Part shown: in pieces, positions 2,480-52,662 of the stretch
How positions within the stretch are numbered: the stretch's first letter is position 1
Layout of the letters: each line of letters starts with the position of its first letter
Sequence record: PP418985.1
DNA: 64,000 nucleotides
Origin: Escherichia phage UPWr_E1
Direction: 5' to 3' (one strand)
The notes under the pieces: model-generated
Seen by the model: only the letters and a program-made list of their open reading frames with translations
The model's database searches: none
What the model was told of the DNA's origin: nothing
Made by a program: the position numbers and the translations under genes

Positions 2480-2724
2480 TCACCGGATACATACCATATT
2501 CAACAACAAAACATATTGTCGGATTCGAAGACATAGAAAAGTCTTGCTTTCCTCTCAAGGTTGAAGTAGACTTTATTACAGAGAACGGATGGGCTTACGT
2601 TACTGTAGCAGAAATGAAGCGAGTAGGTTGGGAAAACTGCATACACCTACCGCATCTTATCCTAGATGTTCGTGCTGGTGAAATTGATATTGATGGAAAG
2701 ATCTATGGAGACAATGTAAAATGA
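2476..2724 (+). CDS. hypothetical protein (82 aa)
   Basis: ORF; ATGA overlap. Confidence 0.5.
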   Translation: MITGYIPYSTTKHIVGFEDIEKSCFPLKVEVDFITENGWAYVTVAEMKRVGWENCIHLPHLILDVRAGEIDIDGKIYGDNVK

Positions 2725-2975
2725 AAATTGAAATTTTCTACCGACGTTATTCATTCTTGGATAAAGTTAACCTTCCAATTATTGTTGAAGGTACACCATA
2801 TTATGAGGGCTTTTTGGTAACGACCGGAGAACTGCGAAAATCTGGAGTCCCCGTTGACCCTGAGTTTCATGATAATTATGAGTGGTGTTTCAGTGGCTTA
2901 TCTGCGAGTAGAGTAAAAGAAGCACGAAAAGCATCATGGTTTGCTCGCTTTAATAACTGGTTGAGGAAACTGTGA
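2721..2975 (+). CDS. hypothetical protein (84 aa)
   Basis: ORF; ATGA overlap. Confidence 0.5.
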   Translation: MKIEIFYRRYSFLDKVNLPIIVEGTPYYEGFLVTTGELRKSGVPVDPEFHDNYEWCFSGLSASRVKEARKASWFARFNNWLRKL

Positions 2976-3313
2976 TGAACGAAATGAAAATGTATATGAT
3001 CCTAAGTGATTCAGGATACACCTTCTTACAGGGTATTGATAGTGACTCGCGTCCTATTGTTTATGGCAAGGAACACCCGACCATCCCTGGGATCATTCTT
3101 GTTACGACAACATCACTTCGTCGAGTGTCGGAAAGTCCATACCTACAAAACGTAAAGCAAGACCGAGAATGGGCTTTCGAGTTAGGTAAAGATCTTGTTG
3201 AGTGGGTAAACTGTGAAGACAAGAACCAACGAAATCATGAAAGGAAGATTGCACGAATTGTACAGAGAAGAAAACTTGATGAAATCAAAAACAGGATTCT
3301 ACAATCAATGTAA
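2975..3313 (+). CDS. hypothetical protein (112 aa)
   Basis: ATG 2975 after GAGGAAA; overlaps upstream stop. Confidence 0.5.
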   Translation: MNEMKMYMILSDSGYTFLQGIDSDSRPIVYGKEHPTIPGIILVTTTSLRRVSESPYLQNVKQDREWAFELGKDLVEWVNCEDKNQRNHERKIARIVQRRKLDEIKNRILQSM

Positions 3314-7454: not shown

Positions 7455-7489
7455 TTGACAATAAGAAATGGGAGTAGTAAAATACTCCC
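7455..7489 (+). promoter_or_regulatory. early promoter with -10 inside hairpin loop (type II)
   Basis: TTGACA 7455-7460; GGGAGTA 7470-7476 / TACTCCC 7483-7489; TAAAAT 7478-7483. Confidence 0.7.
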
Positions 7490-8365: not shown

Positions 8366-8400
8366 TTGACATGATGAAACGGGAGTAGTAAGATACTCCC
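8366..8400 (+). promoter_or_regulatory. early promoter with -10 inside hairpin loop (type II)
   Basis: TTGACA 8366-8371; GGGAGTA 8381-8387 / TACTCCC 8394-8400; TAAGAT 8389-8394. Confidence 0.7.
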
Positions 8401-33392: not shown

Positions 33393-34028
33393 ATGATCGC
33401 TAATGCTTTACCGCCAAAATGGATCGTAAGTCGTTTTTATACTCTAAAGGAAGGTAACGCGCCTGATGGTCGTCCGATCCGAGATCTGTTTCTGGAGATG
33501 ACTACAGCCGAAGCACAGTTTTATAATGATCTGACAGACGATAAGCCATTTCTCGTAAATTCGGTGGACCTTGATGGCAATGTCACATCAATCATCACAC
33601 ATGGTGGGGGAGTGAAAAATATTACTTCTCTGCGTGATCACGGTTGGGAAATTTCTTGTGTATTTCCTGCGGATGTACGCGGATTCTTTGATGAGGTATC
33701 TGATATTAAAGTAAATGCACTGGAACCATATGACGAGATCCCACCACTGAAAGAAGAAAAAGAGTTGACACCGGAAGATGTAGGTAGTACACTACACCCT
33801 GACCTATTTAAGAAGATTAGCGGTTTATGGACTGTTACCCTGTATCCAACCGTATTAGGTTTAGAATTGGGTATGCCAACTTATTCTGATATTGATAATT
33901 GGACTAAGCACATCGATAAAGATGTTGAAAAACAGCGAAACAATGCTAAAATGCAACTTAAAGAGAAACGCAAAGATCTTGAACGACAACTGAAAGAAAC
34001 AAAACATTTGCTTTCTACGTTCGCTTGA
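33393..34028 (+). CDS. repeat-domain family protein (divergent copy, 211 aa)
   Basis: PKWIVSRFYTL...DDKPFLV...DG.V...VRGFFDEV; ATG 33393 after AGGAGATATAAC. Confidence 0.55.
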   Translation: MIANALPPKWIVSRFYTLKEGNAPDGRPIRDLFLEMTTAEAQFYNDLTDDKPFLVNSVDLDGNVTSIITHGGGVKNITSLRDHGWEISCVFPADVRGFFDEVSDIKVNALEPYDEIPPLKEEKELTPEDVGSTLHPDLFKKISGLWTVTLYPTVLGLELGMPTYSDIDNWTKHIDKDVEKQRNNAKMQLKEKRKDLERQLKETKHLLSTFA

Positions 34029-34036
34029 CCTATAAT
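34007..34036 (+). promoter_or_regulatory. promoter-like element (TTGCTT -35 or MotA-box-like TTTGCTTTC, then TATAAT)
   Basis: TTGCTT 34007-34012; TATAAT 34031-34036; TTGACC 34025-34030 abuts the -10 with zero spacer. Confidence 0.4.
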
Positions 34037-34058
34037 GAAACTCTAAGGAGACTATATT

Positions 34059-34433
34059 ATGAAAAATATGATTACACCGGAAGATGTAGCATTTAAAACC
34101 GCAAATAACGGAGACATTCTTATCTTTATTAACGGTAAACATGCTGGTATGGTTGAACCGGAAGGACGCTGGGGAGTCGCCGAACTTTATGATGTGGCTG
34201 GTGTAGATCCGAAAACTGCAATTGTTTTTCTGGCGGATAAAGATCAAATGCGTCGAAAAATTTCTGCGCTCTATAATGAAGCAGTATATTTCTACGAACC
34301 GTTTCATCGTATTAAAACGATCTCCCGCGTGACTCGAAAAGACGTTAACGCTTGTGTTATCAAGATTGTAGAGAATCAGGATAAACTGACGAAAGACCAG
34401 ATTGTTGACTTACTGAAAGAGATTATTCTATGA
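34059..34433 (+). CDS. hypothetical protein (124 aa)
   Basis: Promoter-like TTGCTT...TATAAT 34007-34036; ATG 34059. Confidence 0.55.
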   Translation: MKNMITPEDVAFKTANNGDILIFINGKHAGMVEPEGRWGVAELYDVAGVDPKTAIVFLADKDQMRRKISALYNEAVYFYEPFHRIKTISRVTRKDVNACVIKIVENQDKLTKDQIVDLLKEIIL

Positions 34434-34606
34434 TTGGCTTTAAGCAGTTTGTTGAAGAAAATAAACTCAAAGAAGATATGACCGCTGGCGATGCTGGCGG
34501 CAATCCTGAGAAGATCGCAGCAGGGGAAACGAGCGGATCTATTACCAATCGTGGACCTAGCGTGGTGGGTAAAGAAAAACGCAAGAAGGAGAAAGACGGT
34601 GCTTAG
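34430..34606 (+). CDS. hypothetical small protein (58 aa, not in ORF track)
   Basis: ATG 34430 overlapping upstream stop; Gly/Lys-rich. Confidence 0.3.
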   Translation: MIGFKQFVEENKLKEDMTAGDAGGNPEKIAAGETSGSITNRGPSVVGKEKRKKEKDGA

Positions 34607-34757
34607 TATCATCATGTTTATCGTTGGCTTGCTGTCCGCTATTATCGGTGTTGTTGTTTTCGGATTATCTGGACACAAAACAAAAACAGAAAAGTTATCC
34701 GAGATCACAATGTATGTTGGTGTAGTTCTCATTTTGTTGTCGGTGGCGCTTAAATGA
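34599..34757 (+). CDS. hypothetical small membrane protein (about 52 aa, GTG start)
   Basis: GTG 34599 after AAGGAG; two hydrophobic helices; track ORF 34491-34757 has a long unlikely N-extension. Confidence 0.35.
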   Translation: MLSIIMFIVGLLSAIIGVVVFGLSGHKTKTEKLSEITMYVGVVLILLSVALK

Positions 34758-34957
34758 TTACGATGAAATGTCTTAAAAGCACATATGCACTTTTTGAAGC
34801 CGGAAAAGAATATGAATTTACAGAACTTGATCCGGTAGGCCGTTTTCGTGTATTCTCTTACACATCGCCAGATGGTAGTGTCTATAAATTTGGCTTAGAT
34901 GAAAACGGAGAGAATGAAAATGAAAGTGTAGGAACTTTCATGAAATTTGAGCTATAA
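34754..34957 (+). CDS. hypothetical protein (67 aa)
   Basis: ORF; ATGA overlap. Confidence 0.45.
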   Translation: MITMKCLKSTYALFEAGKEYEFTELDPVGRFRVFSYTSPDGSVYKFGLDENGENENESVGTFMKFEL

Positions 34958-34966
34958 GAGGTTATT

Positions 34967-35995
34967 ATGATTTACTACGCAGATTATGAAATAGCGGAAA
35001 AAGCCATATACGGCGAACGAAATTTTAAACGGTTGCATACTAGCTCATTTACGCTGGTCTGTAGTTGTCCGATCTGCGGTGACTCAAAGAAAAATCATAC
35101 TCAAGCGCGATTCCGTATCTATACCTATAAGGATAGTTTGCGTTGTGGCTGTTTCAACTGTAACTACAATCAGCCGTTAGGTGAATTTCTCAAACAGTAT
35201 AAGCCGGACCTATTCAGGGAATGGCTTATGGAGAGACGGAAGGAACAAGGCGACCACAAGAACACCACGTTCAAGCCACTGAAAAAGGTAGAAAAGCCGG
35301 AGATTAAGAAAGTGCAAACATTGCCTTTCTGTGAAAGATTAGATACTCTTCCGGCTAATCATCCTATAATAAAGTATGTCAGTGATCGTTGCATTCCCCA
35401 CGATAAATGGGATCTTCTGTATTTCACGAGAGAATGGCAAAAGGTAGCAAATCACATTAAGGCTGATACTTTTAAGAATCCGCAACCTGAACCGCGTTTA
35501 GTGATTCCTATCTTTAACCGTGAGAACAAGATAGAATCCATTCAGGGGCGAGCATTGAGAAAGGATTACGGAAAGACCAAATATATGACGATTAAAACTC
35601 ACGAGTTAGCGAGTAAGGTCTATGGTCTTGAACGCGCCGATCCGAGAAAGCCAGTGTATTTCTTAGAAGGTCCGATCGATTCATTGTTTATTGATAACGG
35701 GTGTGCAATTACTGGCGGTACTTTGGGATTAGATGAAATCCCTTTCCCAGACCAGCGAGTGTTTGTACTTGATGCGGAACCACGGTCAGCCGATACAATG
35801 CACCGACTGGAAAAGTTTATCAATGCAGGGGAAAAGATTGTTTTGTGGGATCGTTGTCCGTGGCATTCTAAAGACGTTAACGCCATGATTCAGGACGAGG
35901 GCGCTACACGCGACCAGATCATGGAATATATCAAAGAGAACACCGTACAAGGTCTGATGGCTAAAATGCGGTTTATGAAATATTGTAAATTTTAA
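34967..35995 (+). CDS. 61: DNA primase gp61
   Basis: 342 aa (T4 gp61 is about 342 aa); N-terminal zinc ribbon CPICGDSKKN...C..C; position after 41. Confidence 0.85.
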   Translation: MIYYADYEIAEKAIYGERNFKRLHTSSFTLVCSCPICGDSKKNHTQARFRIYTYKDSLRCGCFNCNYNQPLGEFLKQYKPDLFREWLMERRKEQGDHKNTTFKPLKKVEKPEIKKVQTLPFCERLDTLPANHPIIKYVSDRCIPHDKWDLLYFTREWQKVANHIKADTFKNPQPEPRLVIPIFNRENKIESIQGRALRKDYGKTKYMTIKTHELASKVYGLERADPRKPVYFLEGPIDSLFIDNGCAITGGTLGLDEIPFPDQRVFVLDAEPRSADTMHRLEKFINAGEKIVLWDRCPWHSKDVNAMIQDEGATRDQIMEYIKENTVQGLMAKMRFMKYCKF

Positions 35996-49604: not shown

Positions 49605-49810
49605 TTATGAAAGAATATCCAGAAGGCGGTTATATTGCATTTGTGTACAACAATGAAAAGATTGTACCGATGGTCGTTGAGACTATGGAAGAAGCCAACC
49701 GGATCACTATTGAATCTCTGAACAAGTTAGCAGAGATAACAAACACACCAGAACACAGAGCAACGATAGATTATTTGATGAAAGAATTTTTGGAGGGAAA
49801 GTATGACTGA
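49601..49810 (+). CDS. hypothetical protein (69 aa)
   Basis: ORF; ATGA overlap. Confidence 0.5.
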   Translation: MIMKEYPEGGYIAFVYNNEKIVPMVVETMEEANRITIESLNKLAEITNTPEHRATIDYLMKEFLEGKYD

Positions 49811-50198
49811 ACGACGCATCACTTCAAATGGTTTAGGTATCCATCATACATGGATGGTTGATCCAGACAAAAATCCTTATAAACTGTACGATAAAACCGT
49901 TAAACCGTGGAATAATAGCGTATGGGAAACATCACCAACAACAGCACCTATTATGACTGATCCGAAACCGATTAGCCCGATGGCAGATCCAGTACAGATT
50001 AAGCCGTTACCTTACCAGATAACGACCAATAGCATCGCCAACAAACAAGAAAATGATATTGATATGATCTACGAGATGATTAAACTTTGGCGTGATGTTT
50101 ATCTGGGTGTTCTCTATAACACAGATAAAAGTGCACATGAGGCGGCGTTACTGGCATCTCATGCGGTAGACGAAGCCAAAAAGAAATTTAGTAAGTAA
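49803..50198 (+). CDS. hypothetical protein (131 aa)
   Basis: ORF; terminator 50208-50236 follows. Confidence 0.5.
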   Translation: MTERRITSNGLGIHHTWMVDPDKNPYKLYDKTVKPWNNSVWETSPTTAPIMTDPKPISPMADPVQIKPLPYQITTNSIANKQENDIDMIYEMIKLWRDVYLGVLYNTDKSAHEAALLASHAVDEAKKKFSK

Positions 50199-50207
50199 CT
50201 GATTATT

Positions 50208-50230
50208 AAGCCGATCCTCGTGGTCGGCTT
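50208..50230 (+). repeat. 23-nt terminator hairpin repeat, copy 1
   Basis: AAGCCGATCCTCGTGGTCGGCTT; identical in inverse orientation at 61354-61376; same stem with a different loop at 12066-12088. Confidence 0.8.
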
Positions 50231-50520: not shown

Positions 50521-50555
50521 ATTGACACCAGAACAAGGGAGTAGTAACATACTCC
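50521..50555 (+). promoter_or_regulatory. early promoter with -10 inside hairpin loop (type II)
   Basis: TTGACA 50521-50526; GGGAGTA 50536-50542 / TACTCCC 50549-50555; TAACAT 50544-50549. Confidence 0.7.
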
Positions 50556-51317: not shown

Positions 51318-51346
51318 TTGACAGGGGATCGCCGATCCCCTACAAT
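51318..51346 (+). promoter_or_regulatory. early promoter with spacer stem-loop (type I)
   Basis: TTGACA 51318-51323; GGGGATC-gcc-GATCCCC 51324-51340; TACAAT 51341-51346. Confidence 0.75.
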
Positions 51347-51541: not shown

Positions 51542-51576
51542 TTGACACCGGATTAAGGGAGTAGTAAGATACTCCC
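51542..51576 (+). promoter_or_regulatory. early promoter with -10 inside hairpin loop (type II)
   Basis: TTGACA 51542-51547; GGGAGTA 51557-51563 / TACTCCC 51570-51576; TAAGAT 51565-51570. Confidence 0.7.
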
Positions 51577-51604
51577 ATCAAGACAAAACACTGAGGAATA
51601 TATT

Positions 51605-52372
51605 ATGAAAAACCTGATCGCTGCTATCATTCTTTCTGCTACTGCTTTCGGTGCTAATGCTGCGTCCTTCGATTGCGCTAAAGCTACTACCAAATCAGAG
51701 AAGTTTATTTGCGCGAATGAGTCTATCTCCGAACTGGATTCTAAACTTCATGAAGTATATGTTAAAGCTGTTAAGATTGATCCGTCTCTGAAACAAGAGC
51801 AACGCAACTGGAATAAAACTGTTCGTGATACAATGATCAATATCGGGCAGATTCAGCCACTGGAGGCTGTATATAACGCTCAAATTCAAAACTTGATGAA
51901 TGTATTGCCTAAAGAAGAAACCTCGTCAGAAAGAGAATCAGAGGCTTCTGTGAAGGTTGAAGAACAACAACCGAAACAGGAAGAAAAAGTTGTAGTTCAA
52001 CCGAAGAAAGAAAAGAAACCACAAACCAGCGAGTTTACCTTGCAATGTGAATCTCACTTTAAATGGAAAAATATCGACGGAGCAAACACTAAGCCGAAAG
52101 CACAGCCATTTTATAAAGAGTACAATCCAGGTGAATTGACTCTGAAAGTAAAAGATGGTCAGATTATCCATTTTACATACATCGACAATAATGATGTGCA
52201 TAAGGCAAACACAAAACGAGTAGTTGATGACAACGGAATGATCGTTTTTAGCGGCTGGAAAGAAAATAAAAAGTATTATGTGTGGCGTGAACAGGATAGC
52301 GATATCATTCGCTTAGAAGTCCGCGAACAAGGATACTCTAAAATCTATGTTGACCAGTACGGGTGCAGATAA
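51605..52372 (+). CDS. secreted protein with N-terminal DUF1311 (LprI/YecT-like) domain
   Basis: Signal peptide MKNLIAAIILSATAFGANA; FDCAKATTKSEKFICANESISELDSKLHEVY fits the C..A....E..IC....L...D..L...Y DUF1311 signature; Lys/Glu-rich linker; stem-loop promoter 51542-51576. Confidence 0.65.
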   Translation: MKNLIAAIILSATAFGANAASFDCAKATTKSEKFICANESISELDSKLHEVYVKAVKIDPSLKQEQRNWNKTVRDTMINIGQIQPLEAVYNAQIQNLMNVLPKEETSSERESEASVKVEEQQPKQEEKVVVQPKKEKKPQTSEFTLQCESHFKWKNIDGANTKPKAQPFYKEYNPGELTLKVKDGQIIHFTYIDNNDVHKANTKRVVDDNGMIVFSGWKENKKYYVWREQDSDIIRLEVREQGYSKIYVDQYGCR

Positions 52373-52374
52373 TT

Positions 52375-52662
52375 ATGAAATTCAACAGCATGAAGATTAC
52401 AAAAGATTGGTGGAAGGCGATGCAAGATACTCCAGAAACCAAATTAAGCGAGACAACAACCACAATACAAGTTGATTACGAAGATCCTAAAGACATATAC
52501 AGAGAGATTTTAATCAGAGAGCTTATAAAAGCTGGAAACTATCAAACACCAGATGGCCTTATTGACATGATGGTTAAAGGTCTGTATAGTGGTAAAAATC
52601 CAGATGTTTTACCGTGGTACGAGGGATATTTTAAAACATATCGTGACCACAACCGAAAATAA
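52375..52662 (+). CDS. hypothetical protein (95 aa)
   Basis: ATG 52375 overlapping upstream stop. Confidence 0.5.
   Translation: MKFNSMKITKDWWKAMQDTPETKLSETTTTIQVDYEDPKDIYREILIRELIKAGNYQTPDGLIDMMVKGLYSGKNPDVLPWYEGYFKTYRDHNRK

Follow-up and report, generated by a model that had tools for sequence, protein, structure and literature searches.

What would a T4-type phage gain from an early gene whose predicted product is exported to the periplasm and carries the name of a lysozyme-inhibitor family? The question is raised by a gene in a 64,000-nucleotide stretch of Escherichia phage UPWr_E1 (record PP418985.1), which we refer to as the window. Over the 1.3 kb around the gene, 58 phage records in GenBank show 90-99% identity; the matching records named include RB49, JSE, and ECD7, and those that were checked are Krischvirus. 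By sequence similarity, the window belongs to a Krischvirus, an RB49-like T4-type coliphage. The gene sits in an ORFan-rich region with rIIB and gene 52 (topoisomerase) on one side and, on the other, t (holin) and the genes for the long tail fibres, and its phage neighbours are ORFans with no assigned function. This rIIB-52-t region is one of the 'hyperplastic regions' of RB49 and phi1 (PMC2839356).

The RB49 counterpart, RB49p262, is annotated as a hypothetical protein. Its UniProt name is 'Lysozyme inhibitor LprI-like N-terminal domain-containing protein', and the copies in E. coli are listed by NCBI as 'lysozyme inhibitor LprI family protein'. As early as 2006, RB49ORF260c, presumably the homolog of the same gene under another numbering, was listed with a DUF1311 match at E 0.2 (PMC1524935). 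Both the DUF1311 call and the type of stem-loop promoter are therefore known already from the literature and databases. The polymorphism and recombination of the C-terminal barrel, and the sharing of the gene between lytic T4-type and lambdoid phages, are absent from the papers and annotations searched. 'Lysozyme inhibitor' is here a family name only, and stands for no established activity.

Table 1. Features of the locus, with positions in the window.
Feature	Coordinates	Strand	Details
PeSL-type early promoter	51542..51576	+	-35 TTGACA 51542-51547, 17-nt spacer, -10 TAAGAT 51565-51570
Shine-Dalgarno GAGG	51593-51596	+	8 nt 5' of the ATG; direct sequence reading
CDS	51605..52372	+	255 aa plus stop codon, ATG start; homolog of RB49p262 / UniProt Q7Y3G7
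Predicted Sec (SPase I) signal peptide, aa 1-19	51605..51661	+	from sequence and a crude scan; modelled as disordered; inferred cleavage ANA/AS
LprI/DUF1311-like helical domain, aa 20-102	51662..51910	+	helices 30-37, 39-58, 62-80, 83-100; Cys24, Cys36; near-invariant in relatives
Disordered K/E/P/Q-rich linker, aa 103-140	51911..52024	+	pLDDT <50 over aa 104-138; length varies in relatives
Cassette replaced relative to RB49	51990..52391	+	sliding-window identity, two-piece megablast matches
C-terminal all-beta barrel, aa 141-255	52025..52369	+	invariant Cys148 (first strand) and Cys254 (last strand) bracket the barrel; hypervariable in relatives
Downstream 95-aa ORF	52375..52662	+	phrog_15915; RB49 counterpart RB49p261; starts 2 nt past the stop codon of the LprI-family gene

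The preliminary description of this DNA, made from the letters alone, had placed an open reading frame here, and its coordinates, strand, and length are exact (Table 1). It had also predicted a signal peptide, and a Sec-type signal (GANA/ASFDC, the slash marking the likely cleavage site) agrees with that prediction. The N-terminus reads MKNLIAAIILSATAFGANA/ASFDC, with a lysine at position 2, a hydrophobic core of 13 residues, and A-N-A at positions -3 to -1, and all three regions (n, h, and c) of a Sec/SPase I signal are recognisable in it. In a crude scan for Sec signals among the window's ATG-initiated ORFs of at least 60 aa, this gene was the sole match on the coding strand, the 3 other matches being antisense ORFs. 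On inspection of the sequence there is no lipobox, as the signal ends GANA/AS and the first cysteine is residue 24, after SFD, and no further hydrophobic segment follows the signal peptide.

The C..A....E..IC...L...Y pattern on which the DUF1311 assignment had been based is present residue for residue, as C24, A27, E32, I35, and C36, followed by L48 and Y52. The profile search that had been suggested as a check also comes out in favour of the assignment: PF07007 (LprI) is matched at 24.2 bits (E 4.7e-5) against a gathering cut-off of 22, which is a small margin, and the alignment of aa 24-76 to profile positions 1-71 of 106 covers part of the model. PF07007 is matched by 22 of 23 family members (best E 9.7e-6), and Cys24 and Cys36 are invariant in the alignment of all 23. 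In PHROGs, the entire protein falls into phrog_14799 and its N-terminal 139 residues alone into phrog_4675, neither of which has an assigned function, and PADLOC and NCBIfam returned no relevant family for the protein. The downstream 95-aa ORF is probably co-transcribed with the LprI-family gene, because the two are so closely spaced and no promoter lies between them.

We modelled the protein with AlphaFold2 using the family alignment (mean pLDDT 73.5). In the model, the signal peptide (aa 1-19) is disordered and of low confidence, a four-helix domain follows (aa 30-100, pLDDT ~80), and beyond a disordered linker (aa 104-138) lies a nine-stranded all-beta domain (aa 141-254, pLDDT ~88). A second model, of a prophage variant (P0019) with a very different C-terminal sequence, has the same layout, with the barrel at pLDDT ~82. 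The Lys/Glu-rich linker and the separate C-terminal domain of the preliminary description thus both find a counterpart, the former as a K/E/P/Q-rich segment that is modelled as disordered, the latter as a predicted beta-barrel behind it. In the alignment of the barrels, the only invariant positions are C8, G19, and C114, and Cys148 and Cys254 are invariant in the relatives. The cysteine pairs would be expected to form disulfides in the periplasm, and a Cys148/Cys254 bond would clamp the barrel.

This layout invites comparison with known DUF1311 proteins. As in LprI of M. tuberculosis (Rv1541c), ScwA of Salmonella, and Etsi4, the signal peptide leads directly into a helical domain with the SFDC…IC…L…Y pattern, and as in M. 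tuberculosis LprI a small beta-barrel follows the DUF1311 domain. Unlike M. tuberculosis LprI and MliC, the phage protein is not a lipoprotein, and it differs from the LprI/DUF1311 family at large in that its second domain is hypervariable and not recognisable as MliC, and in that the gene is phage-encoded and early. M. tuberculosis LprI is reported to consist of a DUF1311 domain and an MliC barrel and to inhibit lysozyme, the inhibition being attributed to the MliC domain (PMC7933661). We therefore asked whether the phage barrel belongs to the MliC family.

A diverged MliC/PliC domain (PF09864) was rejected after Pfam at E <= 10, a profile search of PDB sequences, and two hhalign runs, none of which gave a significant match. 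The hhalign probability was 0.6% for the barrel against E. coli MliC alone and 3% for the barrel profile against a 19-sequence MliC profile, a shallow set (at least 71% identity) with limited reach. The MliC alignment is invariant at S69, A70, S71, G72, R74, and Y75, and this SASGxRY / SxSGAxY block has no counterpart in the barrel alignment. Both barrels have a cysteine near each end (YQC…NNC in MliC; YQC/LQC…QYxC in the phage proteins), a resemblance that is no evidence of homology. The same holds for the resemblance to the Neisseria lysozyme inhibitor ACP, which is described as an eight-stranded barrel whose fold is stabilised by a disulphide (PMC5507604). The protein is thus built like M. 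tuberculosis LprI, yet as judged from these alignments its barrel cannot be classed as MliC/PliC. This bears directly on the idea that it inhibits animal c-, g-, or i-type lysozymes in the manner of MliC, PliC, or LprI and so protects E. coli in the gut. We consider that role very unlikely: besides the failed MliC/PliC membership and the absent SxSGAxY motif, animal lysozymes are few and conserved relative to the number of barrel types described below, and an early gene of a lytic phage would gain little from blocking them.

Searches beyond MliC likewise leave the barrel without a sequence family. Pfam at E <= 10 gave no match for any of the eight barrel types, and HMMER searches with the barrel against 1.84 billion representatives returned its own family and two long repetitive proteins only. 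We rejected these two as artefacts, their own Pfam matches being compositional noise. The barrel profile found nothing credible among PDB sequences, where the best match, a PhoU-like protein at E 0.001, was judged spurious. At the level of structure, Foldseek against the PDB gave no match at E <= 0.001, and the best of the matches beyond that threshold are weak ones to barrels of the lipocalin/FABP (calycin) type, which bind ligands. Several phage 'lipoprotein' barrels in BFVD, themselves with no assigned function, also resemble it. A barrel with no family and with such look-alikes could have a periplasmic role unrelated to the cell wall, either binding a small ligand or masking a receptor or transport component (partners of TonB, Tol, or porins) from phages or colicins. 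We regard this as rather unlikely, as the lipocalin/FABP and BFVD matches are all weak (E > 0.001), nothing specific speaks for a ligand or a receptor partner, and the DUF1311 link indicates peptidoglycan enzymes.

The most informative feature of the locus is one that the preliminary description overlooked, namely that the barrel is hypervariable and exchanged as a cassette. The 25 sequences that we compared were those of the window, RB49, and three prophages together with 20 proteins from databases. Identity over residues 1-105 is 84-100% (median 97%). Among the barrels it is 17-100% (median 32%), and a threshold of 60% sorts them into eight types; eleven further loci from IMG/VR added no barrel type. 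Along the DNA, identity to RB49 is ~95% up to position 51989, ~45% over the replaced cassette, and ~95% beyond it. Besides the barrel itself, the cassette takes in the last part of the linker on one side and, on the other, the stop codon, the 2-nt gap, and ~6 initial codons of the 95-aa ORF. The start of that ORF therefore travels with the barrel type.

Synonymous divergence gives the same picture from both directions. Between the window and the IMG/VR locus L020, dS is 0.21 in the N-domain and 0 in the barrel; between Ec119011 and L021, the N-domains are identical and the barrels differ at dS 0.22. By these comparisons, the two domains have discordant histories, and barrels reassort by recombination onto a near-invariant N-domain. 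Within barrel types, barrel dN/dS is at most 0.31, and RB49 and L012 differ by 7 synonymous and 0 nonsynonymous changes. For the N-domain, dN/dS is 0.02-0.11 in within-type pairs and 0.06-0.27 over all pairs compared, and the linker is nearly neutral. These values point to purifying selection on both domains, stronger on the N-domain, and to a protein that is functional and not decaying. On the same grounds, we read the barrels as old functional alleles, at least eight in number and deeply divergent. A diversity-generating retroelement or targeted hypermutation was rejected as the source, because divergence extends over the whole cassette, its edges are sharp, and selection within types is purifying.

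An early stem-loop promoter had also been proposed upstream, and a TTGACA-17-TAAGAT promoter with an overlapping hairpin bears this out, with the early timing taken from published work (PMC2839356). The 7-bp hairpin, GGGAGTA/TACTCCC (51557-51563 / 51570-51576), overlaps the -10 box, and its predicted fold has an energy of -14.7 kcal/mol (z = -2.8). The arrangement TTGACA-N17-TANNAT occurs 11 times in the window, always on the + strand (chance expectation 0.34), and in 4 of the 11 a GGGAGTAGTAA hairpin core overlaps the -10 box. These perfect promoters span positions 4230-51570 (+), for example at 7455-7483, 8366-8394, 50522-50550, 51318-51346, and 51542-51570; in the promoter at 51318, a GGGGATCG/CGATCCCC hairpin exactly fills the spacer. 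A strong hairpin that resembles an intrinsic terminator (50208-50230, +; 9 bp then TTTTATTTT) follows a 131-aa ORF (49803-50198) and stands just 5' of the run of small ORFs driven by such promoters.

From their arrangement, the eleven promoters are the PeSL cassettes of RB49-like phages. PeSLs (promoter-early stem-loops) are intergenic elements in which a strong sigma-70-like promoter has an adjacent or overlapping stem-loop and which lie 5' of a hyperplastic-region ORFan. The class, including a subclass whose stem-loop overlaps the -10 box, was reported for RB49 and phi1 by Arbiol et al. (2010), and reporter assays on other PeSLs of the class found both promoter and terminator activity (PMC2839356). 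The element upstream of our gene has the make-up of a PeSL of the -10-overlapping subclass, and by analogy with the class the gene would be expressed early. Like the PeSL cassettes of RB49 and phi1, the gene belongs to a hyperplastic region (rIIB-52-t) and comes immediately after a PeSL. It differs from them in how it is exchanged, which is not from PeSL to PeSL: the left edge lies in the linker coding sequence and the right edge in the next gene. Since both edges fall inside coding sequences, a domain is swapped and not a whole ORFan.

The gene is not confined to lytic phages. It is found in 26 of 5426 complete E. coli genomes, in 6 over the full gene and in 20 over the first 371 nt only. In the three genomes that we inspected, it is the last gene of a lambdoid prophage with lambda-type terminase, portal, and capsid genes that is integrated in hicB, and the three copies have three different barrel types. 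At these sites hicB (L006 14988-15296, L007 8034-8342, L008 8016-8324) is truncated and lacks its C-terminus, and the toxin gene hicA is intact beside it. The N-domain DNA of the prophages is 95-96% identical to that of RB49, and GC content is 38-40%, compared with 40.5% for the window; homology between phage and prophage ends at the ORF ends, the flanks being ~50% identical. Nine of the 11 IMG/VR loci lie at the end of prophage-size contigs (23-36 kb), and the other 2 lie on contigs of Krischvirus size. One of these two, L020, carries the window's barrel type, which was found in no GenBank phage record searched. On this sequence evidence, the gene occurs in lytic Krischviruses as well as in lambdoid prophages. 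Barrel type D is present both on a contig of T4-like size (P0013, 174,812 nt) and in many prophages (P0014, L013-L017), so that individual barrel types, and not the N-domain alone, seem to be common to the two lifestyles.

Related proteins of 232-250 aa are encoded by Klebsiella Marfaviruses, Aeromonas T4-type phages, and the phage-plasmid SSU5. They follow the same plan of a signal peptide, SFDC…IC, and a low-complexity linker, and end in an unrelated C-terminal domain with two cysteines.

Polymorphism with cassette exchange is typical of toxin-immunity systems, and the extreme version of it seen here raises the possibility that the protein is an orphan immunity protein against muralytic toxins of neighbouring bacteria (T6SS effectors or bacteriocins), each barrel type matching an effector. 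Its cargo position in prophages would suit lysogenic conversion of this kind. There are also precedents among secreted DUF1311 proteins: Etsi4 (PMC12981562), SED_RS06230 (PMC8867033), and neighbours of WHIX effectors (PMC12135965) are cognate or predicted immunity partners of T6SS effectors that target the cell wall. Against this reading, no effector gene adjoins our gene in phage or prophage. The one candidate partner, a divergent 183-aa gene beside the prophage copy, was rejected, as its sequence, conserved at 90-96%, does not change along with the barrel type. Nor is it obvious what a lytic phage whose latent period is short would gain, and we judge immunity of this kind to be unlikely.

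A role inside the cell's own wall metabolism has its model in ScwA, a soluble, periplasmic, disulfide-stabilised protein with an LprI domain that controls the levels of MltD and conferred no lysozyme resistance on Salmonella (PMC7933661). The phage protein might similarly modulate host lytic transglycosylases or autolysins, either in wall remodelling or in the timing or efficiency of lysis, and the holin gene t lies only ~2.3 kb away. That nearness may simply follow from where the hyperplastic region lies, however, and conserved host enzymes would leave eight barrel types unexplained. Lambdoid prophages use a lysis system different from that of T4, and the presence of the gene in them argues against T4-specific lysis control. 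We hold this modulator role to be improbable, too. Of the two roles put forward in the preliminary description, exclusion of superinfecting phages fits better than lysis timing of the T4 type, because the same gene is the terminal cargo gene of lambdoid prophages.

We therefore tentatively favour, as possible rather than probable, a protective or exclusion factor: a periplasmic protein that binds or inhibits an incoming muralytic enzyme and whose barrel sets its specificity. The protein would be exported by Sec, cleaved after Ala19, and left soluble in the periplasm. There it would bind or inhibit a cell-wall-degrading enzyme that enters from outside, most likely the tail-associated lysozyme of a superinfecting phage, as Spackle does in T4. 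The infected cell or lysogen would in this way be shielded from secondary infection and from lysis from without. The barrel would act as the specificity module, so that a swap changes the attacker that is neutralised, and the DUF1311 domain would supply a constant function, for example anchoring or co-binding. We prefer an exclusion factor because early expression, the cargo position in prophages, the polymorphism, and the family's link to peptidoglycan enzymes all fit it. That link to cell-wall enzymes is drawn from the DUF1311 relatives of the protein.

The closest functional parallel is Spackle of T4 (Sp, gene 61.3), a periplasmic protein with disulfide bonds that is made early and inhibits gp5, the tail lysozyme that comes in with a phage (PMC7677548). 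Both are early phage genes for small, soluble periplasmic proteins with a Sec signal and disulfide bonds, which in our case are predicted. The two share no homology, and Spackle is a single 75-residue helical bundle, conserved among its homologs and neither modular nor polymorphic. With T4 Sp and Marfavirus Sp as queries, tblastn gave chance matches only in the window, which covers 64 kb of a ~164-kb genome. Where T4 carries sp, dmd, and 61.x, from gene 41 (helicase) to gene 61 (primase), the window (33393-34967) encodes neither a Spackle homolog nor any protein with a signal peptide; one overlapping ORF of 88 aa there (34491-34757) has two hydrophobic segments. The Klebsiella Marfavirus PWKp18 (L009) encodes a homolog of Spackle as well as an LprI-domain protein of 250 aa, ~2 kb apart (140-421 and 2501-3253) and flanking the primase gene. 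The C-terminal domain of that LprI protein appears to be helical and is unrelated to the Krischvirus barrel. Because Marfavirus encodes both, Spackle and the LprI protein are not simple substitutes; we rejected the gene as a Spackle replacement and retained Spackle as a functional analogy only.

Several observations count against the exclusion factor. The coexistence of a Spackle homolog and an LprI-domain protein in Klebsiella Marfavirus is one, and the lack of a sequence link between the barrel and MliC/PliC, with the SxSGAxY block absent, is another. The gp5 lysozyme is a conserved core gene of T4-type phages, and eight barrel types are not obviously demanded by such a target. (Any association of barrel type with tail-fibre or gp5 type across Krischviruses would be confounded by linkage, as the loci are only 3-6 kb apart.) Finally, the DUF1311 domain of ScwA alone gave no lysozyme resistance, and the literature is divided on whether a DUF1311 domain itself inhibits (PMC7933661).

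These considerations lead to a more elaborate 'handle and warhead' model of the exclusion or immunity factor, which we put forward as doubtful. In this model, the DUF1311 domain would be the 'handle', the linker a tether, and the disulfide-clamped barrel the 'warhead', with each allele directed at a different muralytic enzyme. Cassettes would be traded between virulent T4-type and temperate lambdoid phages, so that phages of opposite lifestyles would have a defence repertoire in common.

The locus, even with no function assigned to it, counsels caution against taking the automatic name 'lysozyme inhibitor LprI family protein' for an established activity. Krischviruses are used therapeutically, and prophage copies of the gene could alter the susceptibility of E. 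coli strains to them. T4-type phages have, to our knowledge, few periplasmic superinfection-exclusion factors that are understood, Spackle and Imm aside. Should the protein prove to be an inhibitor whose specificity domain can be exchanged, it would document recent gene flow from one lifestyle to another, between a T4-type phage that is strictly lytic and lambdoid prophages, with 96% nucleotide identity, phage-like GC content, and homology limited to the ORF. It would then also provide a natural barrel scaffold, with many ready variants, for binding periplasmic enzymes, and account for the way in which infected cells and lysogens match a diversity of attackers.
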